NCBI GenBank assembly: GCA_041659465.1
Contig: JBAZYD010000007.1
Coordinates: 5,670 to 69,669, forward strand
Source: Candidatus Micrarchaeia archaeon
Lineage (GTDB): Archaea > Micrarchaeota > Micrarchaeia > Anstonellales > Anstonellaceae
Direction of reading: 5' to 3'
DNA: 64,000 nt
The notes under the pieces were generated by a model. That model did no database searches. It saw nothing but the letters and a program-made list of their open reading frames with translations, and had not been told where the DNA came from. Below, in pieces: positions 1-55,670 of this stretch (position 1 is its first letter; every line of letters starts with the position of its first letter). The translations under genes and the position numbers were made by a program.

Positions 1-3000
1 GCATGCGGACAGGCTGCAGTCGACATAATCGTTGTTGCCGTTGTTTTCCACCCCGCAGTTGCCGGTGTAGCCGTCCAGCCTGCACTGCTCAGGGCACTGC
101 TTGCATGAGTCGCGGTAGCTGTACGCGTTGGGGTTCTCGCCGCCGCGGTCGTTTATTTTTGAGTAGGCAACGGTTTGCGTCCATGTGCACGCGCCGGTGC
201 ATGCGCCCTCGGCCAGCCCAGGGCAGCCAGAGCCGTCGCAGTACCCGCCCTCGTCGTTCCAGGCGCAGCCGCTCTGGGCACTGCAATCGCCGGAGTTGGA
301 GTTCACGCTGCATGCCAGGCTGTGGCAGGCTGGACCCCCGTTGCCCAGGTATTCGCTGCAGACAGGCCATGTCTGGGCAGGCGCCACAAAGCACTCCGGG
401 TGGTCAGCGCGGAAAGTCGCGCATGGCGCGCAGAGCACCGGGTCAAGGTATGCCGCGGCAGGCCCGCCCACCCTGCAGCCAAACGGGCAGAGGGTGCATC
501 CCTCATCATAGCAGGCGCCGCCGGTGGGAAGGTCCACCACGATGGGGTCCCTCATGCACGCTGCGCCGCATTTGCCGGAGTCGCAGTTGTACTGGGAAGC
601 GAGCACGAGCGGGATGGAGGGCGGCGGGTTGATGATGGTGGAGATGGGGCTGGCAAGCGGGGCGCTTGCCAATGATGCGTCATAGGCGGTGCAGGTGAGC
701 GTCCATGTGTCCCCCACGGTGAGGGCTGATGCTGGTATTGAGCCTACGTTTACCTCGGTCCCCTGCAGGGCAGGCACAGTGGTGCTGCCGCTTGCATAGA
801 GATACTCTTCGTTGATTTCCCATGTGTAGGAATATGTCAGCATGTCATCCGCGTTCGCATCGCTTGCCTTGCAAAAGCCAGTGATGCCTGTCGAATACGC
901 CGGGGACGATATCCTGGAAGACGCCATGATGGGGGCGGCTGGCACGCCGGAGAGCCGTATTGCGCCTTGCGCGCCCAGGAACAGTATTGCGCTGCCGCCA
1001 GGGGGGGACGCCTGGGCGTTGCCGCAGGTCGCGCTGTACTCGCCAGGCACATAGCGCACCCTGAAGCGCGCAGCCTCGGGGCATGCGCGGCAGAGCTCCT
1101 GCGGCTGGCCGGCGGATACGTCAAGCGTGCGGCACATGAGCGGGGTCGTCGGGTCTGTCCTGCAGCTCGCGTCGCATGCAGGGGGTGCTCCGGTGGTGTC
1201 GCAGTTTATGTCCGGGTTCACCGCCTTGTCGCACACTGCAGGCTTGCTGGTCGAGGGGTCGCGCTCCACATTGGAATCTGCAATGAACATCCCGCCAAAG
1301 CTCGTGCGCCTGCAATAGTCAGGGCACGCCAGGCACATTTGGGGGGCATCGTTGACTATGGGGTAGGAGGAGCAGTTTTCCGGAGGGGGACCGGCAACTA
1401 TCAGGCACTCGGGGTGCGCCTTGCAGATGTCGCAGGCTGCTATGATTTCCGGCGACGAGCTGCATATCTTGGCAAAGTTTGGCGGGTCTATGTCATAAAG
1501 GCCCATCCAGGCAGGGTCGTTGAGGGCCTCGTCCACCCTGCACTCCGCAGGGCAGACTGTGGCCTGCCCGTTGGCATTCTTCACGCTGCATATCGAGTCG
1601 CAGGTTGCCGTAGCCCCTATCCGCGATGTGTAGAAGCACGCCTTGGGGCACGTCAGGTCTGTGTCAAGGTTCTTGCACGCAATGTTGATTTCGTCGCCGC
1701 TGTCGGTTACGGTGTATGGGTATACCAATGAGTAGCTGCCCACTGGCTCCTCCCGCATGAAGCGGCACCATGCTGGGTATTTGCCGCAGCCTCCGCAGCT
1801 CACTGACAGGTTGGCAGGCATCACCCCGCCCTTTTCATCGTTGAAGCATTTGTTCTCCGTCGGGACATTGGTGCGGCAGATGTCCGGGCACTTGCCCTTG
1901 CAGTCCGGGTCGGTCTGGCAGTTGAGCCTCTGGCGCACAATCTTGCATCCCGGGTTGCAGCTTGCGCACTTTGCTATGTCGCATCCGGGCATGCTCGATG
2001 GGAAAGGCACGTCGCGGCAGTAGTCCGGGCATTCTGAGCATGAGTTTGGCGCGATTACCGGGGCAGATGGGTTCTGGGGGTCAGTCTCGCTTCGTATCCC
2101 TATGCTGGTAAGGCTGCGGCATGCCACAAGGCCGGGGAAGTCGGACTTGCCGTCCCCGTTGAGGTCAGGCGCAGTCTGGGAATTCCAGTTGTCCTTGTTG
2201 ATGCCTGCGCGCACAATGGACTGTATGGTCGGGAACTGCACGAGCTGGCCTGTCGACGGGTCGGTGAAAAATGCCGCCGGGTATGTGGCGGTGCATTCGT
2301 TGGGGCAGAACGGGTCTGCCACGGCCAGCGTGCGCTCGCCATACACCGTGACATTGAGGGTGTACCAGGCAAAGGCATACGTGAGGGGGTAGACTATGAA
2401 GAGCGAGACCGCGACTGCGAGCAGCAGGCCGCCCAGCTTGCGCGTGAAGAAGAAGGTGCGGAGCACAATGCCAAGCAAAATGAAAAGCGGCGCGATGCCG
2501 AATGCCACCACGTCTATGAAATACCGCTGGGCGGTGAGGCTTGCAAGTATCTTGCTCGTCTGCGAGAAGAGCGCGCCGTGGCGCTCTGCCACCAGCGACT
2601 CGCCTGCGTTGAAGCGGATGGAAAAGCCGGCGTACGCGAAGTAGATGAGGTTCATGTTGACATTGTAGCCGTATGTTGCGCGCCTCATCTTCTCGATGGA
2701 CTCCTTCAGGTTGTCACGCGAATAGCCCTTGCCTATGTCGATGATGGTGGTGAGGTAGGCCTTTGCCGCTGCGACATAGCATGGCTCTGGGACGTTGCAG
2801 TCCACCGGCAGGTCAGAGGCATGTATTGCATAGGTGGCTGTCTGGTCGAAGAATGCCACCAGCGCGATGAGCGTGGCTATGAGCAGCACCGAAATCACGG
2901 CCTGCTTGATTTCGTTGTTTGCAAACGCCTTTATCTCCGGCAGGTTGAATGCTTTTCCGACCATTGCCGCGATTGCGATGATGGAGCAGACAATGGCAAC

Positions 3001-3693
3001 GCCTATCAGCCCCGCCGCCCTCCAGTCGGAGAACCAGCCCACGTTGTAGACGCCGGATGTGCCGTTGCTTTTCAGCACCGCGTTCCCCGTGCCTGCTTCC
3101 AGGCTGCCAATCGCGCTTACAGGGTTCTCGCTCCCGTATGTGGCTGTGCTTGACGGGGGGGGCATCACATAGGCGGCAGGCGAGTTGGTGCATACGCCGG
3201 GAATCTGGGTGCACTTGTAGGATGGGCTGTTGCCGGCGTCGTCGCATGCCAGGCACCTGGCGCACTGCGCGGTCGAGGCGCAGCCTTCCCCGTAGCCTGA
3301 GAGCCCGTCGTTGGAGCCGCATTCTCCCGGGCCAGGCACGTGCGGGGTCCATTTGCAGTCAGCCCAGGCGCAGCCCACCTGGTTGTTGTCGAACTGGCTG
3401 CAATAGGCAAGCCGCGAGCCGCCGCTGCAGGCCTTGGCGCCGTGCCCCTCCACAGCCTCGCCCCAGTTGCAGCCCATCACGCCGCAGCATCCCGAGTCCG
3501 GCATGTTTTCGCAGGATATCAGCGAAGAGCCGCTGCCATCCGCGGAGGTGCACGTCCCGGTGGGCGTGGCGCTCACTTCGCCGCAGGTGACAGACGCATG
3601 CACCGCTGGCATGCACAGGATGAGGAAGGCGATGCTGAGGGAAAGCGCAATGCCGCGATTGGATTTCCCGCCGTGCTTGGTTGCCATTGCCAT
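1..3693 (-). CDS. Giant Cys-rich secreted/polytopic membrane protein, 3'-partial (>=1231 aa visible); long paralog of the next two genes
   Basis: Not in the supplied ORF track. Checked line by line: plus-strand triplets starting at positions 1,4,7... contain no tta/cta/tca from 1 to 3702. ATG at 3693. Starts MAMATKHGGKSNRGIALSLSIAFLILCMPAVHA (signal-like), then a Cys-rich region, a TM core, and a >750-aa Cys-rich ectodomain. Confidence 0.85.
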   Translation of the reverse strand, partial: MAMATKHGGKSNRGIALSLSIAFLILCMPAVHASVTCGEVSATPTGTCTSADGSGSSLISCENMPDSGCCGVMGCNWGEAVEGHGAKACSGGSRLAYCSQFDNNQVGCAWADCKWTPHVPGPGECGSNDGLSGYGEGCASTAQCARCLACDDAGNSPSYKCTQIPGVCTNSPAAYVMPPPSSTATYGSENPVSAIGSLEAGTGNAVLKSNGTSGVYNVGWFSDWRAAGLIGVAIVCSIIAIAAMVGKAFNLPEIKAFANNEIKQAVISVLLIATLIALVAFFDQTATYAIHASDLPVDCNVPEPCYVAAAKAYLTTIIDIGKGYSRDNLKESIEKMRRATYGYNVNMNLIYFAYAGFSIRFNAGESLVAERHGALFSQTSKILASLTAQRYFIDVVAFGIAPLFILLGIVLRTFFFTRKLGGLLLAVAVSLFIVYPLTYAFAWYTLNVTVYGERTLAVADPFCPNECTATYPAAFFTDPSTGQLVQFPTIQSIVRAGINKDNWNSQTAPDLNGDGKSDFPGLVACRSLTSIGIRSETDPQNPSAPVIAPNSCSECPDYCRDVPFPSSMPGCDIAKCASCNPGCKIVRQRLNCQTDPDCKGKCPDICRTNVPTENKCFNDEKGGVMPANLSVSCGGCGKYPAWCRFMREEPVGSYSLVYPYTVTDSGDEINIACKNLDTDLTCPKACFYTSRIGATATCDSICSVKNANGQATVCPAECRVDEALNDPAWMGLYDIDPPNFAKICSSSPEIIAACDICKAHPECLIVAGPPPENCSSYPIVNDAPQMCLACPDYCRRTSFGGMFIADSNVERDPSTSKPAVCDKAVNPDINCDTTGAPPACDASCRTDPTTPLMCRTLDVSAGQPQELCRACPEAARFRVRYVPGEYSATCGNAQASPPGGSAILFLGAQGAIRLSGVPAAPIMASSRISSPAYSTGITGFCKASDANADDMLTYSYTWEINEEYLYASGSTTVPALQGTEVNVGSIPASALTVGDTWTLTCTAYDASLASAPLASPISTIINPPPSIPLVLASQYNCDSGKCGAACMRDPIVVDLPTGGACYDEGCTLCPFGCRVGGPAAAYLDPVLCAPCATFRADHPECFVAPAQTWPVCSEYLGNGGPACHSLACSVNSNSGDCSAQSGCAWNDEGGYCDGSGCPGLAEGACTGACTWTQTVAYSKINDRGGENPNAYSYRDSCKQCPEQCRLDGYTGNCGVENNGNNDYVDCSLSAC

Positions 3694-3702
3694 ATCATCA
3701 CT

Positions 3703-4710
3703 TCATACCGCGATTGCGCGAAGCGCCTTGGAAAGCGCCATGATGGAAGTCACCGTCACTATTATCACGAGGTTAGGGATGAAGATAGCCTGCGGAAGCA
3801 CCGAGCCTATGCGGTAGAACATCGTGGTCTTGATGTCGGGCGGGTAATACTGGCTGTTGTCAAGCCCGTAGGACTGGAACTTCTGGAGGCCTGTGACCGA
3901 GTATGGCGAGGAGACGTTCTGCACCTGGTCGGCGAACACCTGCGCGCTCATCGCATACATCGTGGGCGCGATTATGTACATCCCGAAGAAAAGCGCGAGC
4001 AGCATGTTGCCGAAATCGCGCGTGGGCGGCACCAGGCGGAGCACGAACGCGAACGGAAGCAATACGGACGCGCCCATCCATGCTATGCCCTGAAGGACGT
4101 ACTTCTGGGCTGTGAGGCTCGCCACGATGGGGAGGTAAAGGTCGATGAGGTATTCGCGCTGCGCGGAATACGCCTTGCGGTTCGCCCTCATCGCAACCCC
4201 GTCGCCCCAGAATGGCGTGAGCCCGAGGTAATAGTACTTGGTGGCGTCCATCTGGTTTCGGAGGCTGTCCGCCGTGAGCTCCTTGAGCACGTTGAGGCCG
4301 TTTGACTGCAGGAGCGAGTCCAGGTACATCTGCGACGCTGTTATCGGGCTTTGGTTGCCCGCGTAGCCCTGCGCAATCACGCAGGCGCCCGAGAAGAACA
4401 GCAGGATGCACGCGAAAAGGATGAGCGAGATTATGAGGTTGTAGGCTTCGTCCTTTGCCCACACGCCGGTTGCAGGGTCCTGCCGCACTTTCGAGTACAT
4501 GTATGCAAGCCCTAGGGCGAACGAGACAATGGCGAACGTGATTGCTATGAACGACACAGCCCCGCCGTTGCCGGCATCGGCAAAGCTTTCCACGCTGCAA
4601 GTCGAGCCCGGGCCCGTGTAGCCTGGCAGCGGGGGCGCTGTGGCAAAGCACGCCGAAACGGCAAGCGCGAAAAGCGCGAACAGAGCCCTTGTTTTTGCAC
4701 CCATGCTCAT
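3703..4710 (-). CDS. Polytopic membrane protein (about 5 TM), minimal paralog of the Cys-rich trio
   Basis: 335-aa ORF with an N-terminal signal-like segment. Shares the core motif ASLTAQKYVLQG...FVLRLVPPTRDFGNMLLALFFGMYIIAP with both neighbours. Its start ATG overlaps the upstream stop (ATGA at 4707-4710). Confidence 0.8.
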   Translation of the reverse strand: MSMGAKTRALFALFALAVSACFATAPPLPGYTGPGSTCSVESFADAGNGGAVSFIAITFAIVSFALGLAYMYSKVRQDPATGVWAKDEAYNLIISLILFACILLFFSGACVIAQGYAGNQSPITASQMYLDSLLQSNGLNVLKELTADSLRNQMDATKYYYLGLTPFWGDGVAMRANRKAYSAQREYLIDLYLPIVASLTAQKYVLQGIAWMGASVLLPFAFVLRLVPPTRDFGNMLLALFFGMYIIAPTMYAMSAQVFADQVQNVSSPYSVTGLQKFQSYGLDNSQYYPPDIKTTMFYRIGSVLPQAIFIPNLVIIVTVTSIMALSKALRAIAV

Positions 4711-6386
4711 ACCAGCTTGGACAGCCCGTAAAGCTGCGGCTCGCCGCCGAAAGAGATGGCAAGCGCGCGCAGCAGCGCGAGCGTGATTATTATCGGTATC
4801 AGGAACGTGAAAAGCGAGATGACCGTGAATTTCGCAACCCCGGGAAGGGCGTAATCCGCAATGGGCGTGTAATACTTGTCAATGAGCGCCCCGGGCTGGG
4901 TGCCCTGGTCCATGGTGGAAAACACCGAGGCATAGATGATTATCGGGAAGACCGCCTTGACTATTGCGAAGATGATTTTGATGACGTATTTGCAGGTGAT
5001 AGAGTAGCATGTCCCGAAGTCAATGGCGCCCAAGGAAGCCGCCGAAAGGATGGCGCACAGCGGCAGGCACACCACGATATGCCAGCCGTTCTCCCCGCCG
5101 ATGAGGGGGATGGGGCTTTGCACAAAATACTTCATGGTCTCGCTGCACACGATGTTTGTCATGGGGGGGTTGCCCACGTCGTCCACCTTCACATTCGCAG
5201 TGCTTGCCACCAGGTCCGGCTGGAATGTCTTGTAGATTTCGCTTGAAAGCTGCACGGACGACGGGTAGACCACCGATGACGCGATGGTTGCCGCAAGCAA
5301 TGTGCCTCCCAGCCTGCGCGTGAAGGAGAACGAGCGCAGGAAAATGCCCACGGGAAGCATCACCACCGAGGCGGTTGCGAAGAACTGCAGGAACGCAGCC
5401 TGCGCCGAGGCGAGCATCATGTAGCCTGCCACCGCGTCAAGCGCAGCGCCCACCTCGGCAACCAGCGGGGAAAGCCCTGCGCCTGGGGATGCCGAATAGG
5501 AGAACGAGACGAACACCAGCATGGACGTGCCGGCGGTGTACGAATAGCCGGCTATCTTTGCGAGGTTGAAATAGACCTTGGCAAGGTTCATGTAAAGGGC
5601 GTGCGCGTCGCCGTAGAGCATCTTCATGGAGTTTTGCGCATTGGCTATCACGTTGGCAGCGCCGCCCTCGCCGGCCAGGAACTGGGATGCCGAGTTGACC
5701 GTTGCAATCAGGGCGATGCAGAAAACCGCAATCACTATGCTTTTCATGAGCTCGCCAAGCTCCACCTTCACCCAGGCCTCCAGCATCTGGAGCTCGAAGA
5801 GCTTGGCTGCCATGTAGGCAAGGCCCAAGAACGAGGCGGCCACCGCCACCGCAAGCGCCAGCCATCCGTAGAGGCTAAAGTCGAACCAGCTCCCCTGCGA
5901 GCCGCCGCCGGAAGCGCCTCCGCAGAAGCCGTTTGTGCAGGAAATGCCGCCGCAGCATGCATTGGGGTTGTCCCCGCACGCGGTTCCGCGGGGGATGCAG
6001 GCAACGCAGTGGGTCCCGCTGCACACCCCGCTGCAGCAATCGGCCCCTGCGCTGCAGGAAATGTCAGGTGAGCAGACGATTTTGCTTGCCGGGACGTCAG
6101 GGCATGTGCATGAGTTGCATTTTCCGTTCAGGCATACCGAGCCCGAGCAGCAGTCGGCGGTGCTTGAGCACCCGAGCACGCCAGGGTCGAGGCAGTCAGT
6201 GCAATACTTCAGGACCTGCTCGCCATGCGCTGCCGGCTCTTCCTGGCAGAGATTGCTGCAGCATTCCCCATTGCCGCTGCACGCAAGCCCGCTTTGGGTG
6301 CATGTGAGTGCGTATGCCGTGCCAGCGAGGGAGAGCGCAAGAAATAAGGTAAGAAAAATATGCCTTGGTGCTAGTGCCCCTCCCAT
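4707..6386 (-). CDS. Polytopic membrane protein with an N-terminal array of four knottin-like Cys modules
   Basis: 559-aa ORF. Signal-like N-terminus, then 26 Cys (my count) in about 130 aa with a repeated C-x6-C-x5-CC-x3/4-C-x4-C spacing. TM core carries the motif FLRSFSFTRRLGGTLLAATIASSVVYP, shared with its paralogs. Confidence 0.85.
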   Translation of the reverse strand: MGGALAPRHIFLTLFLALSLAGTAYALTCTQSGLACSGNGECCSNLCQEEPAAHGEQVLKYCTDCLDPGVLGCSSTADCCSGSVCLNGKCNSCTCPDVPASKIVCSPDISCSAGADCCSGVCSGTHCVACIPRGTACGDNPNACCGGISCTNGFCGGASGGGSQGSWFDFSLYGWLALAVAVAASFLGLAYMAAKLFELQMLEAWVKVELGELMKSIVIAVFCIALIATVNSASQFLAGEGGAANVIANAQNSMKMLYGDAHALYMNLAKVYFNLAKIAGYSYTAGTSMLVFVSFSYSASPGAGLSPLVAEVGAALDAVAGYMMLASAQAAFLQFFATASVVMLPVGIFLRSFSFTRRLGGTLLAATIASSVVYPSSVQLSSEIYKTFQPDLVASTANVKVDDVGNPPMTNIVCSETMKYFVQSPIPLIGGENGWHIVVCLPLCAILSAASLGAIDFGTCYSITCKYVIKIIFAIVKAVFPIIIYASVFSTMDQGTQPGALIDKYYTPIADYALPGVAKFTVISLFTFLIPIIITLALLRALAISFGGEPQLYGLSKLV

Positions 6387-6407
6387 GCAAAAACGTCGCC
6401 AATGAAG

Positions 6408-6415
6408 TTTATAAT
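6408..6415 (-). promoter_or_regulatory. TATA-like box for the 559-aa gene (leaderless geometry)
   Basis: Plus-strand tttataat (minus ATTATAAA) lies 22-29 nt upstream of the ATG at 6386. Confidence 0.5.
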
Positions 6416-6437
6416 GCTTTTCGCAGGGGTGCGCGCA

Positions 6438-6890
6438 TCATTTTCCAAACGAAGGGAAATAGTAGAAGAAGGGGAGCACTGCGATGATGATGGCGCCCAG
6501 GAGCGCGGGCATGAAAAGCCTGAATTCGCCATTCCCGAAATAGAACCCGCCAGCAACGACCAGCACGAAAAACAGCGCCGCCGCAAGCAGGTAATCACGC
6601 ACTTTTTTTTCGAACCTTGCGCGCCTTGCGCTTGCCTCCCCCAAATGCTCGCTGCATGCGACCGTATGCCTTGCAGGCTGGCGGAAAAGCGCGCGAAGCT
6701 TCCTTGCGGCGATGATTGGGAATTCCGGCTTGGCAGGGGCGCCTGCGCGGGCCGAGCCGCAGATTATGCATATCCCTTTTTCCAGAGAGCGCGCGCCTTG
6801 CCCCTGCGGGCGTGCGCCAATTCCCTGCGCCCGCGCGCCTTTTGCCTGCTTATCCGCGCGCTTTCTCCCCTTGGCATGGTTCGTTGCCAT
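6438..6890 (-). CDS. Small basic protein with a CxxC...CxxH motif and two C-terminal TM helices, hypothetical
   Basis: The ORF extends to 6947, but the ATG at 6890 (MATNHAKGRKR) sits about 25 nt downstream of a TATA-like box at 6913-6919. Contains ICIICGS...VACSEHL and a hydrophobic C-terminus. Confidence 0.5.
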   Translation of the reverse strand: MATNHAKGRKRADKQAKGARAQGIGARPQGQGARSLEKGICIICGSARAGAPAKPEFPIIAARKLRALFRQPARHTVACSEHLGEASARRARFEKKVRDYLLAAALFFVLVVAGGFYFGNGEFRLFMPALLGAIIIAVLPFFYYFPSFGK

Positions 6891-7048
6891 GGCGCAATTT
6901 CCCCACTTCCCCTTATAAAGCTGAGGATGCCAATTCATGCGCAACAACTACGGGCTAAATCCCCGTAGATTGCAGGCTGGTGGCTTTAGGCGGATGCGCC
7001 TGGATGGCAAGCAAATGTGCCGCGCACCCGCAGTTGATGGTGATATTT

Positions 7049-8032
7049 ATGGCTGATGATGACATTTCCCAAGACGTGGAAGGGCACGAGGAACATGCCC
7101 ACACCCACGGGCATGACGAGCCAACCGAGGAGGACATCGCGCAGATGTACGCGAATTTCGAGAAAGCCGGGAAAATCGCCGCCTCTGTCCTGAAGGAGGC
7201 GCCCAAGCTCGTGCTCCCCGGCGAGTCCTACTTCGACATTGCCGAGTCGCTTGAAAAGATGATAGTGGACGCAGGCGGGAGGCCTGGCTTCCCTGCAAAC
7301 ATCTCGATAAACGAGATTGCCGCGCACTTCACGCCAGAGGCTGACAATGCCATACTCATTGGCGAGACCGACTTGGTGAAGATAGACATCGGCGCCCAGA
7401 TAGACGGGTGCATCGGCGACACCGCGGTCACGGTTGACCTGTCAGGCGAGCACGGCAAGCTTTGCGAGGCAAGCTTTGCTGCGCTCGACGCCGCGCTTGC
7501 CCTCATAAGGCCGGGCGTATATGTCGGGGACATCGGGGCGGCGATAGAAAAGGAAATCGTGTCGCGCGGCTACAAGCCAATTGAGAACCTGACGGGCCAC
7601 AAGATAGAGCCCTACCTTCTCCACGCGGGGGTGGACATACCGAACATAAGCGGGCACAAGGGGTACATGGTGCAGGAGGGGGACATCTTCGCAATCGAGC
7701 CGTTCGCCTCCACCGGGAGCGGGCATGTTGCGGACACATCGCAAGTGGAGATATTCGCGCTCCAGGCGACTCCTAAGCTTCGCATGAAATACTCGCGCGA
7801 GCTGATGGAATACATCGTGGGCAATTACTTCTCGCTCCCGTTCGCCGAGAGGTGGCTGCGCGGCGTGTTCCAGTCGCGCCTCACGCTCTCCACTGCGCTT
7901 CGCGAGCTCCTGAATTCCGGCGCGCTGCACCCATACCCGGTGCTGCGCGACACGGGCAAGGGCATGGTGTCGCAGTTCGAGCACACCGTGATTGTGGAGC
8001 ACGACTCGGCAAAAGTGACCACGAAGATTTGA
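7049..8032 (+). CDS. map: Methionine aminopeptidase, type 2 (archaeal M24)
   Basis: Translation has the pita-bread fold pattern: HFTPE..., DLVKIDIGAQIDGCIGDTAVTVDL, GHKIEPYLLHAG, FAIEPFAS. Start chosen at MADDDIS. Confidence 0.9.
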   Translation: MADDDISQDVEGHEEHAHTHGHDEPTEEDIAQMYANFEKAGKIAASVLKEAPKLVLPGESYFDIAESLEKMIVDAGGRPGFPANISINEIAAHFTPEADNAILIGETDLVKIDIGAQIDGCIGDTAVTVDLSGEHGKLCEASFAALDAALALIRPGVYVGDIGAAIEKEIVSRGYKPIENLTGHKIEPYLLHAGVDIPNISGHKGYMVQEGDIFAIEPFASTGSGHVADTSQVEIFALQATPKLRMKYSRELMEYIVGNYFSLPFAERWLRGVFQSRLTLSTALRELLNSGALHPYPVLRDTGKGMVSQFEHTVIVEHDSAKVTTKI

Positions 8033-8041
8033 GGCGCCGCC

Positions 8042-8809
8042 ATGCATGCCAAATTGGGGCAGAACTTCCTCGTCGATGAGAACGTCCTTGCCTACGAGGC
8101 GGAATGCGCGGACGTGCGCAGCAATTCCGTCCTGGAAATAGGCGCGGGGGACGGAAGGCTCACGGCAAAGCTCCTCTCCTGCGGCGCCGGGCACATCACC
8201 GCGGTGGAGTTCGACCCCAAGCTTGCAAAGCAGCTCCGCATGAGGTTTGCCACATACAAGCGCGTGAGGGTGCACGAAGGCGACTTTCTCGAGTATGACG
8301 AATCGGCGCGCTTCGGCAGGATTGTGGGGAACATCCCGTATTACATCACCTCGCCCATCCTCATCAAGCTCTCCCGCATGAATTTCGACAAGGCAGTGAT
8401 TTGCATCCAGAAGGAAGTGGCTGCGCGCATGATGGCCGAGCCCGGAAGCCCCGAGTACGGGAGGCTCTCGGTCTTTTCCCAGCTCACGTACAAAACGGAA
8501 ACGCTGGCGCTTGTGGAGAGGACGGCGTTCCTGCCTGTCCCAAAAGTCGATTCGTGCATAATCTCGCTTGAGAAGACGGGCTTTTTGATGACAGGATGCG
8601 AGGAGAAGGCGATAGGCGCGATTTTTTCCCACAAGAAAAAGAGCCTGAGAAACGCCGTGGTGGACGCGCGGGCGAGCCTGTTCGGGGGCAGCGACAAGAA
8701 ATCGGCCGCGCAGGCCGCGCAAACGCTTAAATACAATGGGAGGAAAGTCTTTTCGCTGTCGCCGCCCGAGGCTCTCGAGGTTGCGCGGCAGCTTTGTGCA
8801 GCAAGGTGA
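8042..8809 (+). CDS. rsmA: 16S rRNA (adenine1518/1519-N6)-dimethyltransferase KsgA/Dim1
   Basis: LGQNFLVDENV...VLEIGAGDGRLTAKL (SAM motif), GNIPYYITSPIL. Confidence 0.9.
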   Translation: MHAKLGQNFLVDENVLAYEAECADVRSNSVLEIGAGDGRLTAKLLSCGAGHITAVEFDPKLAKQLRMRFATYKRVRVHEGDFLEYDESARFGRIVGNIPYYITSPILIKLSRMNFDKAVICIQKEVAARMMAEPGSPEYGRLSVFSQLTYKTETLALVERTAFLPVPKVDSCIISLEKTGFLMTGCEEKAIGAIFSHKKKSLRNAVVDARASLFGGSDKKSAAQAAQTLKYNGRKVFSLSPPEALEVARQLCAAR

Positions 8810-9891: not shown

Positions 9892-9991
9892 CGGGCCCGG
9901 AGGGATTCGAACCCTCAACCGTCTGGTGTCTTCCAGGCAAATCAATATGCCAGTTCGAAGCCAGCTACTCTATCCATTGAGCTACGGGCCC
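9892..9991 (-). tRNA. tRNA-Arg (anticodon TCG) with a 27-nt canonical 37/38 intron (9928-9954)
   Basis: Hand-folded cloverleaf: GGGCCCG/CGGGCCC acceptor, GCTC..GAGT D arm, loop CTTCGAA, T arm GAGGG-TTCGAAT-CCCTC, discriminator G. Bulge-helix-bulge motif: CTTC/GAAG helix flanked by 3-nt bulges GAA and ACA. No encoded CCA. Confidence 0.9.
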
Positions 9992-15730: not shown

Positions 15731-17734
15731 CTAGGGCAGAATCCCCCCAAGCCCGTTCCTGCTTGCAACCGTGAAAACAAGCTTGTCGTTTTCCAAGGCG
15801 AGCAGCACCTGGCTGTTCTCAAAGCCGGGCACGGCAAGCTCCTCGGTGAACTTCCCGAGCTCTTCGCTGCTTTCAAACACCACCGCGCGGCACGCCTTCC
15901 CAATCCCGGGCAGCAGCTGCTTCTTCCCCCTGAAAAGCGCAAGCTCAAGCTCCCCTTTTTTCACCGTGATTGCCGGCTTCCTTGAAAAGCGCAATCCCCG
16001 CTCAAGCATGCATTCGTGGATGGTGCGGAGCATCATAAGCTCGCGCGCGGAGAACCCGCCCATCCGCGCCCTTGGGATGAACGCCCCATCATGCTCTGCA
16101 AAAAACCCGTCGGATGACAGCTTGCAAAGTATGCGCTGCACGCTGTGCGCGTTCACGGGCAATGCGCCTTGCCCGCCATTTCCCGGCAGGAGCCCTGCTG
16201 CGATTTCATGGGGATGGCAGGGCAGGGAAAAGCCGCCGAGCTTCTTGTCCGCGCGGACGTAGGCCGAGGCGACCTCCCTGGCGCCTACGCAGAGCACCTT
16301 CGGGTCGGAAAGCGCGACTTCCGGGAAGGAGATGGAGTATTTCGTGCGCTTGCCTGCGCGCAGGAGAAGGAAAACCGCGAGGACAAAAATCGCCGCTGGC
16401 ACGCCAAAGCGCAGGTAGGTGTCGATGAGCGCGCCCATGCCCGATTGCTGCGGCACGAACGGGTAATCCGCCCTCGAGCCTGAAAGCCCGAACCCGAAGG
16501 TGTGGTTGCCCGGAGGGGGCGCGGACCAGATGACAAGGCGGCCTTCATGCACGGAATAGTTTTTTGGCGCCCCGCCGTCAAGCCTTGCCGACATGGCGCC
16601 TTCAGCAGGAACATTGTCAAGAAGCGCCAGGAATTCGTACCTGTTGCCGTCCGCGGACACGGGCATGACGGAAAGCATGGGCACGGACACAAAGGCGGAA
16701 GCGTGCACGCGGGCGAACTGGTCCATCACGCGCACCACATACCTGCCGCCCCTAGGAAAGCCCATGGAGAACCTGCTTGCAAAGCCCTGCCTTACCTCCC
16801 CGCCGGCAATTTTGCGGCGGAACGCCTCCCCTTCAGGCAGGAATGCCACTGCGGAAAAGCTGAGGTTCCTGCCCACCTCGCCCCCGCCGAGGAGCGAAAA
16901 TTCGTAAATGCCATCCTGCCCTGCCGCAAGATGCGCAGGCCCGATTAAGCTGCCAGGCGTGGGGGATAGTTTTCCGCTGTCGGAAAACCTGTAATTGCCC
17001 ATGCCTGCCTCGCACACTGCGCGGCAATAGGCGGCGCTTGAGTTTACCGGCACCGCGAGCGTGGCGTTGCCAGGCAAGGATAGGGAGCGCACGGTTTGGG
17101 CGCCTGCCAGGAAAATCGCGCGCCTTGCCGTTTCCGCCATTGCGCCCCCGTCGTTGGAAGGCGGCAGGCGCACCAGCTCGAAATTTCCCGGAAGGCTTCC
17201 GTTCATCTGCGCAAGGTTGCCGTTTTCATCCATTGTTTTCCCTGGCAGCGCCTCAAGCACGATTACGCGGGTATTTTGCGACTCAAGCGCAAGGGCATCT
17301 TGAAGGAGGGGAAGCGGGATTGCGCCTGCCGGGGAGATTATGAGCGTGTTTTCCGAAGAGAGCGCATCCGCAAGGGATGCAGCACGGGAGGAAAGCCCGC
17401 TCTTCATGAGCGCGGCGGATATTTTCAAGGGCAGGCCTGCATCCACGCCGGGCGCGGACGGGAATGCGAGCAGGAGGATGTTGTTTTGCAGGGGGCGGGG
17501 CGAGCAATAGGCGGACAGGTTGCGCGCGGAATCCGAGGCGAGGTAGAGCCGCAGCACTGCAGATTGCGATGCGTTTGCGCCAGCGTCCGCGATTTCCGCC
17601 GAGCGGATGCCGAATGCCGCCTGCGCGCGCTCGCCCGCCTGCGCCTGCTGCGGCGGCGCGCCAGGGAAAGGGATGAGCAAAACGAGGAAAAAGGCGATAA
17701 AGAGAAGCGCGATGGCTCCCACCAGCCTGCGCAT
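15731..17734 (-). CDS. Bitopic envelope protein with a cytoplasmic C-terminal domain, hypothetical
   Basis: Start at MRRLVGAIALLFIAFFLVLLIPF (ATG 17734). About 430-aa external part, a second TM (VPAAIFVLAVFLLLRAG), and an about 190-aa C-terminal domain. No family recognised. Confidence 0.6.
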   Translation of the reverse strand: MRRLVGAIALLFIAFFLVLLIPFPGAPPQQAQAGERAQAAFGIRSAEIADAGANASQSAVLRLYLASDSARNLSAYCSPRPLQNNILLLAFPSAPGVDAGLPLKISAALMKSGLSSRAASLADALSSENTLIISPAGAIPLPLLQDALALESQNTRVIVLEALPGKTMDENGNLAQMNGSLPGNFELVRLPPSNDGGAMAETARRAIFLAGAQTVRSLSLPGNATLAVPVNSSAAYCRAVCEAGMGNYRFSDSGKLSPTPGSLIGPAHLAAGQDGIYEFSLLGGGEVGRNLSFSAVAFLPEGEAFRRKIAGGEVRQGFASRFSMGFPRGGRYVVRVMDQFARVHASAFVSVPMLSVMPVSADGNRYEFLALLDNVPAEGAMSARLDGGAPKNYSVHEGRLVIWSAPPPGNHTFGFGLSGSRADYPFVPQQSGMGALIDTYLRFGVPAAIFVLAVFLLLRAGKRTKYSISFPEVALSDPKVLCVGAREVASAYVRADKKLGGFSLPCHPHEIAAGLLPGNGGQGALPVNAHSVQRILCKLSSDGFFAEHDGAFIPRARMGGFSARELMMLRTIHECMLERGLRFSRKPAITVKKGELELALFRGKKQLLPGIGKACRAVVFESSEELGKFTEELAVPGFENSQVLLALENDKLVFTVASRNGLGGILP

Positions 17735-17836
17735 GGCAAAATGTCGCAGGCAAAACATAAAACCCTGCCTTTCCGCCTGCCTGCAACAGGATGGTTTATA
17801 TACCTTTCTTAACATATCAAACCACAGGTGATATTG

Positions 17837-18304
17837 ATGGCGTTTGCTCAAACTAGAAGTCTGGCGGGTGCAGCACAGGGACAAGCCGCACTATTGACAC
17901 CGGTTGTTCAGCGGACAACTATGAGGGACATAATCCTCAGAGGGCAGAGGAAGGTTGACGAGGTAAGAAAAACTGCGCCTCCGCTGTTCATAGAAAGAGA
18001 TATTTTGAGCCTGATAGCTAGTAATTATCGCTATGAAGACAGGTTACTTAATGATGTTGACGACCGGATACATTACAATGACACTAAGATACTGTTTAAC
18101 CACTCGCCAGAAGGGATTTTTAGAAATTTGCCTGAAAAAAACTATATGAAAAGTATTAATGCGCTCAACGCAGCAAGGCAACACCTCGTGTGTGAAAATA
18201 GCGAAAAGCACGACGAAGCCATAAAAAAGCTCGAGGAAGTTGGTGAGAGACTCAGGACGCTAGAACGGATTTTCGATAACAATCTTTGTTATGCCCTGAG
18301 ATAA
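17837..18304 (+). CDS. Hypothetical protein in a low-GC islet
   Basis: ATG at 17837 follows the TATA-like tttatata at 17795-17802. GC drops to about 33% at 18001-18060. No family recognised. Confidence 0.45.
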   Translation: MAFAQTRSLAGAAQGQAALLTPVVQRTTMRDIILRGQRKVDEVRKTAPPLFIERDILSLIASNYRYEDRLLNDVDDRIHYNDTKILFNHSPEGIFRNLPEKNYMKSINALNAARQHLVCENSEKHDEAIKKLEEVGERLRTLERIFDNNLCYALR

Positions 18305-20471: not shown

Positions 20472-20563
20472 TGGGCCCACGAGGATGGAGCGCGAAGCGC
20501 GACAGATTTTGCGCGCAGCGCAAAACGTGGGCACACGAGCAGCAGCGAGTGGGCCCACGAGGA
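20472..20563. repeat. 14-nt exact direct repeat tgggcccacgagga (20472-20485 and 20550-20563)
   Basis: The second copy is the 3' acceptor strand plus T-stem of tRNA-Val. The first copy lies 64 nt beyond the tRNA 3' end. The spacer contains the perfect hairpin TTTTGCGC-TGC-GCGCAAAA. Confidence 0.8.
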
Positions 20564-20693
20564 ATCGAACCCCGAGTCTTCTGCACGTCAAGCAGACGTC
20601 TTACCATTGTCGAACCCATTTGCACTTTTCCGTTGACGCTTTTGCGAGCGTGCCCATCTGGAGCGAGCAAAAGGGTCATTCGACTATAGGCCC
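20550..20693 (-). tRNA. tRNA-Val (anticodon GAC) with an about 70-72-nt intron in the D-loop (about 20605-20677)
   Basis: Exon 1 is GGGCCTA-TA-GTCG-AAT(G). Exon 2 is (AT)GGTAAGAC-G-TCTGC-TTGACGT-GCAGA-AGACT-CGGGG-TTCGATT-CCTCG-TGGGCCC-A. BHB-like: TCGA/TCGA 4-bp helix flanked by 3-nt bulges ATG and CAA, then an ACCC/GGGT helix. Confidence 0.8.
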
Positions 20694-28934: not shown

Positions 28935-29242
28935 GGGCAGGCAGAAGGGGAAGCTTTTTAATCAGGCTCAACAGGAACGTTAGCGGGAGCGGCGGAAGGA
29001 CGGCCAACCAAGGCGCGAGACGCGCCGACGGAGGAAGCTCTGCCCACCGCAAGAGTCCTATCCCCTTAAGGGGGAATCGGGAACAGAAACGAAACTTTTC
29101 CGCGCGGATGAGGATGACGAAAGGAGACGCGCGAGAATTGGTGAAACGGCCCGTGTATGGATGCCATGCGCGGTGCAAGGCCTTTGTGCCGCTTAGTCCA
29201 ATGCCGTCTGAAACAGAAGGCAGGCTACTACCTGCCGCTCCC
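28933..29242 (+). ncRNA. rnpB: RNase P RNA (archaeal type A-like)
   Basis: P4 strands GGAGGAAGCUCUGCCC and AACAGAAGGCAGGCUA, GGUGAAACGGCCCGUG element, terminal P1 pairing GAGGGCAGG / CCUGCCGCUC. The overlapping ORFs are Arg/Gly-rich junk. Confidence 0.8.
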
Positions 29243-39254: not shown

Positions 39255-40298
39255 ATGAGCAAGGAAGTTATGCACATGGGTACGCAAGGGCATCTAAAAC
39301 AGAAAACAAGGAAGCAATCCGACAGTCCAACTACTACCAAAAGGCCAGGAAAATTCGGCAGGTTTGCCCGCCGGGCCGTGCTGTTTGCCGGACTCGCGGC
39401 AGGAATCATCGCTCCTTCCCTTTCAAGCGCGCAGGGAAAAGACATTGCCAAGGCGTTCCCTTCGCAGGATGGCGACAAGAACAAGATTGCGCTCACAACG
39501 GCAGGCGAAAAGCTCCTTCCGAAAAACACGCTTGTGCTTCCCGACACCGCGCCCGTGCCGTCATACACGCGCAATGTGACGCCTGTCGGCGGGGTTCCGG
39601 AGAATGCCACGGCAGATGGCAAGGATGCAAAGAAGATAGAGCCCGACCCGAACGGACCATTCAAAGTTGAAGGTGGATGGGCAGAGAGCGTGGAGATAAG
39701 GAATGATAGTTTGATTTTTAATAAAGTTGAAGTGAATGGAAAAAAGGCTACTTATGGTGGTGCACCGATCGGAGAATTTCTAATGTCAAGGGGGATTGTT
39801 CCTGAGAACCGTTCGATAAAAAGTAGCGAACTAAGAGAGATTAATGCAGATAACCGATGTGGTGCAATAGTATTTGTATCGAATGGAAAAAGCCTGCTCT
39901 ATTATTTGACAACAAATTTGACTAAAAATGATTTTGGAGCCGTAGCTGTAAGCGCATCAGACGGTTCAGTTCCATTCGAGCACAAAGAAGCATTGATAGT
40001 GAGTCTCGACGGATCGGCATTTACATTGACACCAACTACATTCCTTGGCTTAATACCAGTGAAAGACAAATTCCTAAAGATAGATATGACATTTAGCGAG
40101 ATTGTTGGACAGACAATCCCCCCATTTGAAAAGCCAGTTATTGACATTAAAAATGGGAAAGTAAGAATCCGAGATAGAACAATAAGTGATGAAGCTGGAA
40201 AGAAATATGATCTGCTCATTAATCCATTTACTATCATGTTAAATCCAAAGGGAAGCATTGAGCTTGTTGAAAGTGGCGAACCATTGACAAAAAATTAA
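39255..40298 (+). CDS. Secreted hypothetical protein (possible twin-arginine signal), compositionally chimeric
   Basis: GRFARRAVLFAGLAAGIIAPSLSSAQG. GC is high up to about 39680, then falls to about 35%. Confidence 0.6.
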   Translation: MSKEVMHMGTQGHLKQKTRKQSDSPTTTKRPGKFGRFARRAVLFAGLAAGIIAPSLSSAQGKDIAKAFPSQDGDKNKIALTTAGEKLLPKNTLVLPDTAPVPSYTRNVTPVGGVPENATADGKDAKKIEPDPNGPFKVEGGWAESVEIRNDSLIFNKVEVNGKKATYGGAPIGEFLMSRGIVPENRSIKSSELREINADNRCGAIVFVSNGKSLLYYLTTNLTKNDFGAVAVSASDGSVPFEHKEALIVSLDGSAFTLTPTTFLGLIPVKDKFLKIDMTFSEIVGQTIPPFEKPVIDIKNGKVRIRDRTISDEAGKKYDLLINPFTIMLNPKGSIELVESGEPLTKN

Positions 40299-40313
40299 TT
40301 TCAAGGTGAATAA

Positions 40314-41129
40314 ATGTTCTTATTCCAGGGGACAGGATCAGTTTGGGGAAAAGCGACAATTGAAAAGGTCAGTAAACAACAAATCCAAGCAGAAACGATT
40401 GTTTCTGATGCAGTGGCAAAAGGCAAATCAAACAACGAAATAGTACAAGGCCTAAAGAAGAACGGATTTGAAGTTGAAGTCAAGGATAAAGCAGGCGTAG
40501 TATTGTATCCGCCGGGATTTGTACCTAAACAAGAAGAGTTCAATAAAAACAAAGAACTTTCTCTGAATGTAATCCAGAATGAAAAGAAAATAGCAATGTT
40601 AGAAATTGATAAAGAAAAAGGGACAATAAATGGCAAACAAGCTGAAAAAATAGAGGCAGTCGAGGAGAGACTGAATGGGGCTTTGGCAGTTGTTAATGAT
40701 CTTTTTACGGGTAAATATGGAAAAATTGAAGAACTTGCAGAGTTTATATCCGCAAATGCTAATGATCCAACTTTGGCAAAAGTAGTAATAGAAATTAAAC
40801 AGACAGATAAGATGGCAATGGGATTCATGCAGCAGCCAAACTCGCAAGAGATACTGAACCAACCAGAAAATGCAGAGACAAAGAAACTATATGAAACTAA
40901 CCAAATATCTGCAACAGAAGTGGTCAGACGATTGGGCTTGGAAAAGGATTTCAAGAACTGGCTCCAGGAACAGCTTGACGCGATTGGGGGCATTAAGGAC
41001 GCAGGAACCACTTCAGCACCGATGGGGCGAATAATTTCATATCAGTGGCAAGGCATCATAAACCGAAAGGATGAAGATAACATGGCTGAAGTTCAGAAAA
41101 GGGACGAGGACGCCATCAAGAAGGGTTAA
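40314..41129 (+). CDS. Hypothetical K/E-rich protein in a low-GC islet
   Basis: 271-aa ORF at about 33-38% GC. No signal peptide and no family recognised. Confidence 0.55.
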   Translation: MFLFQGTGSVWGKATIEKVSKQQIQAETIVSDAVAKGKSNNEIVQGLKKNGFEVEVKDKAGVVLYPPGFVPKQEEFNKNKELSLNVIQNEKKIAMLEIDKEKGTINGKQAEKIEAVEERLNGALAVVNDLFTGKYGKIEELAEFISANANDPTLAKVVIEIKQTDKMAMGFMQQPNSQEILNQPENAETKKLYETNQISATEVVRRLGLEKDFKNWLQEQLDAIGGIKDAGTTSAPMGRIISYQWQGIINRKDEDNMAEVQKRDEDAIKKG

Positions 41130-41151
41130 TGCTGGAACTTCTTTTTCATCC

Positions 41152-41751
41152 TTATTGCATCGCAAAGTAGAGGAACCTCTGCCCGAATGTTATCGCCGCC
41201 AGCACTGCCCCTGCGAAGAGCAGGAAGGATGCGCAGCTTAGGCAGAAGGGGACAAGCGCGAGCGCGATGAAGAGAAGGATGAGGCGCTCTGCGCGCGGGA
41301 AGATGCCGGGCTGTGATGCGAGCTTGCGCGCGTTAGCGACCTTTCTGTGGTCTGCGTACGCGGTGGCAAAGCTTGTCATGCACGAGCCGAAGAAAAGGAA
41401 TGCGATTATCCATGCCGCAGCCGGAAGGATGAATGGAGGGAGCGCGTAGAAGAAAAACGAGCAGGCGAACAGGAATTCCACCAGCCTGTCTATCATGCCG
41501 TCTATGTAGGCGCCGCGCGTGGAAACCTCCTTCCTTGCGCGCGCAACCGCGCCGTCGATTGCGTCGGTGGCGCCTGAAAGGATGAAAAAGAGCAGGGAAA
41601 GGAGAGGCTGCTGCGCGTAGGCGAAATAGAAGCCCACAAGCGCGAGAAGGAGCGCGCACACAGTAATCTGATTCGCCGAGAGGGGAAGGCAGGAGAAAAG
41701 CCTTCCTGCCTCTTGCTGGAAGCGCACGCCAATGCTTGTTTTTTTGAGCAT
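41152..41751 (-). CDS. CDP-alcohol phosphatidyltransferase, probable archaetidylinositol-phosphate synthase
   Basis: DAIDGAVARARKEVSTRGAYIDGMIDRL is the D-G-x2-A-R-x8-G-x3-D-x3-D motif. Lies immediately downstream of MIPS. Start at MLKKTS. Confidence 0.75.
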   Translation of the reverse strand: MLKKTSIGVRFQQEAGRLFSCLPLSANQITVCALLLALVGFYFAYAQQPLLSLLFFILSGATDAIDGAVARARKEVSTRGAYIDGMIDRLVEFLFACSFFFYALPPFILPAAAWIIAFLFFGSCMTSFATAYADHRKVANARKLASQPGIFPRAERLILLFIALALVPFCLSCASFLLFAGAVLAAITFGQRFLYFAMQ

Positions 41752-41753
41752 GG

Positions 41754-49041: not shown

Positions 49042-49050
49042 GTGCTTTTG

Positions 49051-55539: not shown

Positions 55540-55670
55540 GGTATTAATTGGCGCCTAAGGGTTTATAAAGATTGTGGCTAACTTTGGATAAAAATGTAGA
55601 AAAGAAAGGATTGGCATGCAAGCGGCGAGCGCGCACCTGCGCGAGATGCTTGGGCAAAGGGCGGTGCGCT

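Follow-up and report, generated by a model that had tools for sequence, protein, structure and literature searches.

A conserved operon of six paralogous membrane proteins in Micrarchaeota-type DPANN archaea, a candidate for host contact

Introduction

What do DPANN archaea, such as the small symbiotic Micrarchaeota, use to recognise a host, to hold on to it and to take up its material? This is an open question. Contact structures of DPANN cells are seen by cryo-electron tomography, and the literature searched names no genes for them. Host-derived nanotubes are described in the Micrarchaeota literature, and many DPANN-specific protein families are membrane-bound or secreted and carry no annotation. 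The locus analysed here brings the question down to a set of genes. It lies at the start of a stretch of 64,000 nucleotides (nt) from a Candidatus Micrarchaeia archaeon of the Anstonellaceae (GCA_041659465.1, contig JBAZYD010000007.1, positions 5,670 to 69,669), which is called the window in the following. Three consecutive genes on its minus strand, A, B and C, encode membrane proteins with a shared transmembrane (TM) core. They open an operon, A to G, of six paralogs (A-F) and a large putative lipoprotein (G). This operon is a concrete candidate for host contact: every complete related locus examined has it, and its products are predicted to combine membrane-embedded with large extracellular regions. 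The set of genes is constant, the candidate binding modules can be exchanged, and the curated families hold no counterpart. The cluster is of high interest to the biology of DPANN and of archaeal envelopes; it appears new in kind, with a function that is inferred.

Six orthogroups in a fixed order and a putative lipoprotein

Related loci were collected with B-specific patterns from one genome per GTDB species, which gave 36 loci. All 29 complete loci carry six paralogs, A-F, in the same order on one strand. A family hidden Markov model (HMM) detects the core in each paralog of 40+ loci and counts exactly six members in each locus having enough sequence. In a best-hit matrix of the 29 non-redundant complete loci, C, E and F find their counterpart in 812 of 812 comparisons, D in 802, B in 757 and A in 732. 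The cross-hits between A and B are tentatively attributed to overlapping stop-to-stop calls of open reading frames (ORFs). As the best match falls at the same position in other loci, A-F are six ancient orthogroups and not recent tandem copies. The depth of the set is illustrated by B, whose identity goes down to 24-30% across the 29 loci. The junctions from A through G are overlaps of 1-4 nt or gaps of a few nt (e.g., in locus L005).

The first-pass annotation of the window had proposed the trio A, B and C as an envelope system. The three are indeed true paralogs, and the unit is larger: A-F plus G, with a further gene H in the clade of the window. The composition of A-G is constant in clades with different neighbours, which makes the A-G block the conserved unit. 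In the source genome, D-H are placed downstream of window base 1 by NCBI locus tags and by the orthologous loci. D was found on the source contig (P0143, locus tag WC861_03255), two tags below B.

G follows F in nearly all loci. It is a Cys-rich protein of 1,280-1,680 amino acids (aa) without the TM core, and its homology extends over the deepest division within the locus set. G starts with a signal peptide and [LIAV][AS]GC; about 20 orthologs have a lipobox-like signal (LAGC, ISGC, AAGC, VSGC or LGC) at residues 15-29, and G18 and C19 are nearly invariant in the alignment. The lipobox classifies G as a lipoprotein, with lipid modification as a prediction. Neither Pfam nor PDB gave a match for G. 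The idea that G is an S-layer protein was rejected at the domain level: no S-layer domain (e.g., PF05123) was matched in Pfam by A, B, C, G or the long orthologs. The Micrarchaeota S-layer protein of the literature is a different gene, which carries PF05123.

H overlaps the end of G in all three loci of the window's clade that reach past G (L045, 16547-20284; L050, 18723-21023; L051, 18871-21005). It has a signal peptide, an ectodomain of about 170 aa, one TM helix (LCWPLMLI...GRNPFLAFD) and a cytoplasmic region rich in lysine and glutamate. Full H products have 1245-2026 aa, and H has no Pfam match.

Other genes border the operon in a distant clade. There, a double zinc-ribbon protein of 113 aa (DZR, E=1e-10; L005 20272-20613, same position in L033, L036, L037, L038, L043 and L044) comes after G, together with a conserved protein of about 189 aa. 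Directly upstream of A, L005 has a divergently oriented gene for a protein of 1399 aa without Pfam match (4510-8709, minus strand). The only duplication of the whole unit was seen in the metagenome-assembled genome (MAG) MAG195, with two complete A-G clusters on different contigs (L031, L044).

Gene junctions and promoter in the window

The three minus-strand ORFs described for the window were found again with the same coordinates. Gene A (4707..6386, minus strand) encodes 559 aa: a signal peptide, an N-terminal Cys-rich ectodomain, the family core and the C-terminal tail SFGGEPQLYGLSKLV. The best-hit matrix places it in orthogroup A, and its orthologs are the proteins P0108-P0137. Gene B (3703..4710, minus strand) encodes the minimal member of the family, 335 aa with a signal, five TM helices and a helical ectodomain of about 90 aa. 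It is 100% identical to 'hypothetical protein WC861_03265 [Candidatus Micrarchaeia archaeon]'. According to the ORF coordinates, the start of B overlaps the stop of A as ATGA (4707-4710). The NCBI annotation of B (P0001) is two codons shorter (333 aa) and has a 2-nt gap in place of the overlap. The coupling of A and B is tight under either start. B and C are separated by the spacer AGTGATGAT (3694..3702, minus strand; 9 nt, read directly as 'agtgatgat'). The GTGAT within it may be interpreted as a Shine-Dalgarno-like element. The tight coupling of the three genes by overlap and short gap was thus noted correctly in the first pass.

Gene C starts at 3693 and is open to base 1 without a stop codon (1..3693, minus strand). 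The edge of the window therefore truncates it, and its N-terminal 1231 codons are covered. Full-length C orthologs have 682-1534 aa and end in TM5 followed by LGGDIEIPGLG[KR]II. The C orthologs of L001-L044 show two HMM stretches each, the core and the C-terminal TM helix.

The putative operon promoter (6408..6421, minus strand) consists of a purine-rich AAAAGC, similar to a transcription factor B recognition element (BRE), and a TATA box, ATTATAAA (6415-6408). The TATA box is located 21 nt upstream of the ATG of A. It had been described as TATA-like, and its conservation confirms it: the BRE/TATA element is found at equal distance in L003, L010, L011, L013, L015, L001, L007, L005, L033 and L037. 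That both its sequence and its spacing are conserved between loci argues for a single promoter and for a transcript with no leader or almost none. Co-transcription and translational coupling of A, B and C from a conserved promoter are supported by these sequence features.

A shared core with five transmembrane helices

Composition-adjusted BLASTP aligned A with C (E=4e-15, 26% identity over 222 aa), B with C (E=1e-8, 26% over 239 aa) and A with B (E=5e-5, 24% over 225 aa). All three alignments cover one region, a core of about 220 aa from TM1 to the end of TM4. The similarity is beyond chance, and the sequences confirm A, B and C as true paralogs; the proposed paralogy was not lost under proper alignment statistics. 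In C, the core from TM1 to TM4 comprises residues 224-445 (2359..3024, minus strand), as given by BLASTP against A and B and by the HMM, and includes LRTFFFTRKLGG (residues 411-422, bases 2428-2460).

Alignments including the relatives show four invariant positions (B numbering): E88, R225, R231 and P249. Y70, M71, Q202, P219, G234 and A239 are nearly invariant. The family signature is AYM ... AK-x-E-x2-Q ... SL-x-AQ ... LP-x-G-x2-LR-x-F-x2-TR-x2-GG-x-LIA ... YP. It is carried by A, B and C of the window, which fall into orthogroups A, B and C, and contains the AYM and F-x-F-T-R-x-L-G-G motifs already quoted for the trio. The turn between TM3 and TM4 reads RSFSFTRRLGG in A (residues 351-361, 5304..5336, minus strand), with the R...R invariant and the G near-invariant. 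In B it reads RLVPPTRDFG (residues 225-234, 4009..4038, minus strand), carries R225 and R231 and is predicted to be cytoplasmic.

The topology was predicted from hydropathy, N-terminal signal peptides and the positive-inside rule. The N-terminus is outside and followed by TM1, a short cytoplasmic turn, TM2 and an extracellular region of about 90-110 aa. TM3, the cytoplasmic turn with R...TR...GG, TM4, an extracellular region of variable size, TM5 and a cytoplasmic tail complete the protein. The short loops predicted inside are rich in K/R. The TM helices have few polar residues, and conserved charges are located at the cytoplasmic interface. TM4 has a face of small residues (GG-x-L-x-A-x3-G). 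The three proteins had been described as differing only in what is grafted onto the outside. This is approximately correct: A has two additional hydrophobic segments in loop 4, and B is the one paralog without the cytoplasmic LGG[DE] tail.

For B, AlphaFold2 gave a confident model from 42 sequences (predicted local distance difference test, pLDDT, 81; predicted template-modelling score, pTM, 0.71). The modelled structure is all-helical in its body, with five TM helices and an extracellular hairpin of two helices that bears a beta-hairpin at its tip.

Ectodomains

The cysteines are unevenly distributed over the three proteins. Of the 32 Cys of A, 26 lie within its first 171 residues. The part of C that is covered has 89 Cys, of which residues 1-223 contain 18 and residues 446-1231 contain 68. 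In B there are 4. Cys content and topology place the Cys-rich parts outside the cell, in agreement with the hydropathy and the positive-inside rule and with the first-pass assignment as ectodomains.

The Cys array of A (residues 29-171, 5874..6302, minus strand) has four six-Cys units with a spacing like that of inhibitor cystine knots (ICK), C-x6-C-x5-CC-x3-C-x5-C. The label 'knottin-like' rests on this Cys spacing, and the spacing pattern was non-discriminating in a shuffle control. In Pfam, the array matched only Dickkopf_N (E=7e-4, below its cut-off). The N-terminal domain of A is 21-41% identical to those of its relatives, whereas the TM parts of A are 63-80% identical. By its sequence, the array is a lineage-specific graft.

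C has two ectodomains. The N-terminal one (residues 34-223, 3025..3594, minus strand) is Cys-rich with 18 Cys, and the L003 ortholog has CARDB repeats in its place. The second is the insert between TM4 and TM5 (residues 446-1231, 1..2358, minus strand), which is predicted to be extracellular and contains 68 Cys. An insert is present in every C ortholog (277-1092 aa, 18-96 Cys), and dozens of its cysteines are invariant among 28 aligned C-type proteins. A repeat C-x2-C-P-x2-C-R occurs at residues 552, 787, 1066 and 1197, with a degenerate copy at 868. The motif could mark disulfide knots or metal sites. An extracellular Fe-S reading was set aside: the domain lies in an exported loop of a polytopic protein, which makes disulfides or structural metal sites likelier than Fe-S clusters. 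The number of copies per protein is 4-8 in the clade of the window and 0-3 in distant clades. The AlphaFold2 model of C is weak (pLDDT 67, pTM 0.36). It predicts small disulfide-knotted units and a beta-sandwich at about residues 878-1022 (bases 628-1062), for which Foldseek returned weak matches to sandwiches of the FN3/CARDB type only.

Ectodomain lengths were compared in 29-30 orthologs per paralog group. The N-terminal region varies from 6 to 1079 aa in A, 30 to 479 aa in B, 36 to 398 aa in C, 16 to 626 aa in D, 11 to 631 aa in E and 16 to 120 aa in F. Its median is about that of a signal peptide in all groups except C (94 aa), and B and F almost never bear a graft. The region between TM2 and TM3 is constant, with group medians of 92-113 aa. 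This difference between variable N-termini and constant TM2-TM3 region identifies the N-termini as the sites of grafting. The grafts of the orthologs include CARDB repeats (E=8e-18 and 5e-33), a right-handed beta-helix (Beta_helix/NosD, E=9e-28) and, in paralog D of L007, an ICK toxin-like Toxin_12 match above its cut-off (E=8e-5). An immunoglobulin-like (Ig-like) module was recognised by eye as recurring just before TM1.

Long A, D and E proteins have a module of about 90 aa before TM1, sometimes in several copies and without Pfam match: NCPP-x2-P-x-DPD-x-D-x-V-x3-Y-x-W ... C-x2-G ... L-x2-RACD. Examples are A of L021, D and E of L017, E of L015, D of L024, and P0135.

The ectodomains had been called hypervariable, which a single sequence cannot show and which the comparison bears out only in part. 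Among relatives with a B 67-72% identical to that of the window, the TM regions are 63-90% identical and the N-terminal ectodomains 21-44%. The insert of C has 55-58% identity in its first, proximal half, along with its invariant cysteines. By sequence, the ectodomains are better described as modular, fast-evolving at the N-termini and conserved in the insert of C.

Distribution and genomic context

B has 107 orthologs, all of Micrarchaeota-type and all annotated as hypothetical. The named homologs belong to Candidatus Micrarchaeota/Micrarchaeia, Anstonellaceae, Burarchaeum or unclassified/uncultured archaea and are likewise hypothetical proteins; the labelled matches are Micrarchaeota-type DPANN MAGs. 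Beyond such labels, the 36 loci of the species-level scan include two 'ainarchaeum', one 'archaeon' and two 'uncultured archaeon'. The label 'ainarchaeum' may be a garbled Iainarchaeum. A HMMER scan of 1.84 billion representative sequences counted 3147 members at E<=1e-3, of which 2690 reach E<=1e-10, with taxonomy taken from the best 150 of the 3147.

No relatives were found in 72,556 plasmids and 50,697 phage records (tblastn) or in IMG/VR contigs, and an origin from mobile elements was rejected on these grounds. In the clade of the window, the cluster is located among chromosomal housekeeping genes.

The gene upstream of A is of uncertain membership. It is a minus-strand ORF of 169 aa (6438..6947) with CxxC...CxxH and two C-terminal TM helices, and it ends 51 nt upstream of A, beyond the promoter of A. 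L003, L007 and L050 have a small gene at the same site; L001 and L005 have none there. The rest of the window comprises ordinary chromosomal genes, including methionine aminopeptidase, KsgA, RtcA, a primase-like Toprim protein, ThyX, a P-type ATPase and a helicase. Large ORFs without Pfam match are located at 15731-17884, 45177-46757, 49042-50844 and 53818-55539. Rfam identified a full-length archaeal RNase P RNA at 28988-29239 (plus strand; RF00373, 93.7 bits), which confirms the archaeal origin of the window. Its tRNA match at 9892-9991 (minus strand, 56.6 bits) spans 100 nt and is probably an intron-containing archaeal tRNA; ARAGORN found no tRNA in the whole window. A second tRNA match, at 20550-20617, is borderline (32.5 bits). 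The G+C content is low at 40001-42000 and 54001-56000, with 0.47-0.48 against about 0.58 elsewhere.

Searches for known families

The first reading of the window recognised no named family in the core, and the searches agree. Pfam, NCBIfam and PADLOC gave nothing significant for A, B and C, and Pfam and NCBIfam likewise for 30 family members searched singly. Matches to Anophelin (its signal peptide), Dickkopf_N and PRK12292 were spurious library matches to hydrophobic sequence. phmmer and the family profile found no match in the PDB sequences. Foldseek with the B model found nothing at E<0.2 in PDB and BFVD. The best membrane-protein matches to this model were TTYH2/3, which are not significant (E=0.6-1.5, probability 0.06-0.12, TM-score 0.09-0.20). 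The core thus matches no known kind of protein by sequence, profile or predicted fold. The literature searches found no account of the A-G operon.

A loose resemblance to channel subunits of the VirB6/TrbL or CedA type had been suggested from the topology. Neither profiles nor structures nor the gene neighbourhood support it. TrbL/VirB6 (PF04610) had no match at E<=1 for A, B, C or the 30 members. The family profile aligned to bacterial VirB6 with a probability of 0.56% in hhalign, a comparison with a thin alignment of four sequences (TraD of plasmid R46 and three relatives). The NCBIfam profile for CedA (NF041796) matched one of the 30 members (E=0.018) but did not match the A, B and C proteins of the window. 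The profile for a conjugal transfer protein similar to pilins (NF045849) matched residues 227-281 of C, the TM1-TM2 hairpin, at E=0.008, and two of the 30 members (best E=0.003). For 30 hydrophobic queries, these matches are at about chance level. The N-terminus of CedA and VirB6 is reported to resemble the hairpin of VirB2-type pilins (PMC9905601). With the C model, Foldseek listed a chain of the R388 type IV secretion system (T4SS) inner-membrane complex, 8rtd_L, at rank 34 (E=0.4, probability 0.21); the top 50 PDB matches of the B model (best E 0.3) contain no T4SS chain. An ATPase or pilin near the cluster, for which the first pass had recommended a search, was also missing: five loci (L001, L003, L005, L007, L045) have no VirB4/CedB/FtsK-type ATPase and no pilin-like gene within 10 kb, and their sole ATPase-like match is a 174-aa AAA_18 protein upstream in L005.

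A surface platform and its alternatives

Fixed one-to-one orthogroups, overlapping codons, a single promoter and an always-present lipoprotein point to an obligate hetero-oligomer of fixed stoichiometry. Equimolar coupling without variation in copy number is typical of obligate hetero-oligomers, as in the operon logic of Mce1A-F. The variable parts are extracellular and bear adhesin-type modules in the orthologs, so that an envelope apparatus for adhesion or host contact is a reasonable reading. With a host-dependent lifestyle, attachment to the host surface, possibly with uptake, would be the likeliest role. The interpretation tentatively preferred here, as a nearly even call, is a hetero-oligomeric A-F complex specific to Micrarchaeota-type DPANN, serving as a surface platform for the attachment to a host or substrate and possibly as a conduit.

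In such a complex, A-F would assemble 1:1:1:1:1:1, most simply as a pseudo-sixfold ring with about 30 TM helices. The two-helix hairpins between TM2 and TM3 would form a short extracellular stalk or collar. A clasp, inside one subunit or between subunits, is probably formed by the invariant glutamate where TM2 reaches the cytoplasm and by the pair of arginines in the TM3-TM4 turn, and the small-residue face of TM4 may pack helices. The disulfide-rich insert of C and the lipid-anchored G would build a constant extracellular superstructure that extends through the pseudo-periplasm in the direction of the S-layer. Lineage-specific binding modules would be grafted onto the N-termini of A, B, D and E and to some extent of C, as knottin-like arrays in the window and as CARDB, beta-helix and Ig-like modules elsewhere. 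The LGG[DE] tail and, where present, the giant H with its cytoplasmic region suggest a cytoplasmic connection.

Several points weigh against the platform. Paralogy, gene order, orthogroups, the operon with its promoter, the predicted topology, the lack of known homologs and the kinds of grafted module are observed, while we infer how and in what stoichiometry the subunits assemble, that they form a ring, what G does and which function results. The adhesin-type modules occur in some lineages only, and the median N-terminal region is a signal peptide. Adhesion therefore cannot be the conserved central function. That function must reside in the core, the insert of C and G, and none of these yields a functional clue. 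The conserved cytoplasmic tail and H in the clade of the window hint at an unexplained intracellular role.

A bolder version of the proposal is possible rather than probable: a hitherto undescribed, lineage-defining envelope machine encoded by A-G (plus H), unrelated to T4SS, pili, Mce and other known systems of cell contact, in which a heterohexameric ring of five-TM subunits carries a disulfide-rich tower, docks on hosts and possibly takes up material.

Instead of contacting the host, the six subunits and G might anchor or space a hexagonal S-layer, similar to SlaB. A structural scaffold of this kind agrees with the presence of the cluster in each complete Micrarchaeota-type locus examined and with its housekeeping neighbours in the clade of the window. 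Six subunits fit a six-fold lattice. In the S-layer protein of Micrarchaeum, a membrane anchor is not evident, and the authors of its description suggest that another protein, bound to the membrane, serves as a stalk (10.1101/2021.04.28.441871). The conserved extracellular parts, the insert of C and G, are long enough for the 20-25 nm of the pseudo-periplasm of Micrarchaeum (10.1101/2021.04.28.441871). On the other side, no S-layer domain was detected in the components, and a pure spacer does not obviously need six distinct subunits, lineage-specific adhesin grafts or a conserved cytoplasmic tail. A scaffold without direct host contact is therefore considered unlikely. Even with a structural role, the proteins would merit a family definition, given their roughly 3,000 representative clusters and their new five-TM fold.

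An uptake conduit is somewhat less credible still. By analogy to the operon logic of Mce, and with an independent origin, a hetero-hexamer would form a tunnel or channel for lipids or metabolites of the host. Six paralogs in fixed order are also the layout of mce operons, DPANN archaea in general rely on hosts for lipids and metabolites, and the extracellular helical hairpins of all the subunits could line a tube. TTYH proteins are the only Foldseek membrane matches that share the five-TM topology, far below significance. The conduit is opposed by the composition of the cluster, which has no MCE/MlaD domain, permease or ABC ATPase and no component identified as energising transport, and by the TM helices, which have few polar residues and conserved charges at the cytoplasmic interface.

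Variable modular ectodomains on a common anchor would also be expected if the six proteins acted separately, as adhesins or sensors. Tandem contingency families differ in how many copies they have and how these are arranged, whereas the 29 loci keep the six orthogroups one-to-one and in fixed order, with overlapping stop and start codons; B and F are almost never grafted. Independent surface receptors are quite improbable on this evidence.

A very divergent VirB6/CedA/TedA-type channel, as a remnant or derivative of a T4SS or a Ced-like system for the exchange of DNA or protein, is the least plausible option: the general architecture of an N-terminal two-TM hairpin and a large outside loop is similar, and NF045849, NF041796 and the R388 chain gave sub-threshold matches, but profile and structure searches brought the family no nearer to these channels than chance, an ATPase or small pilin is missing from the five neighbourhoods, and plasmids, phages and viral contigs hold no relatives.

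The surface platform could be addressed in cultivated co-cultures of Micrarchaeota, with the operon products as defined targets of antibodies, of cross-linking proteomics, of multimer modelling and of sub-tomogram averaging.

Comparison with known systems

VirB6/TrbL and CedA/TedA are regarded as the membrane platform of an apparatus that acts between cells. Like them, the micrarchaeal proteins are polytopic, begin with a hairpin of two helices, continue with more TM helices and have a large loop outside the cytoplasm. They differ in number, with six fixed paralogs in place of one gene, and in setting: the operon is chromosomal, confined to one lineage and absent from the searched mobile elements. 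Sequence, profile and fold show no significant similarity, with CedA compared through its NCBIfam profile and VirB6 also profile to profile.

SlaB-type S-layer anchors of the Sulfolobales are also membrane-anchored and extracellular, with a size sufficient to span the pseudo-periplasm. SlaB is a single-pass protein of coiled coil and beta-sandwich, whereas six polytopic subunits are found here. The TTYH/prominin pentaspans share the predicted topology, N-out with five TM helices, C-in and helical extracellular extensions between TM2-3 and TM4-5. They belong to unrelated, eukaryotic organisms and have no sequence similarity.

A likeness is also found in the operon logic of Mce. The mycobacterial Mce1-4 systems have six paralogous proteins each, MceA-F, which form a heterohexameric tunnel for lipid import. 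Mce proteins consist of one TM helix and an MCE beta-barrel. The Mce fold is unrelated to the five-TM, all-helical micrarchaeal family. The MlaD/MCE domain (PF02470) had no Pfam match among A, B, C and the 30 members, and the gene tables of the clusters list no counterpart of the YrbE permease or of the MceG/ABC ATPase. Shared are six paralogs in constant order with variable distal domains, a layout that suggests a 1:1:1:1:1:1 hetero-hexamer in the envelope; this is an analogy and not a homology. The organisation of six paralogs and a lipoprotein thus has an analogue in Mce and no relative. If the proposed assembly is correct, the operon would encode the second independent design of a six-paralog heterohexamer in a cell envelope, after Mce.

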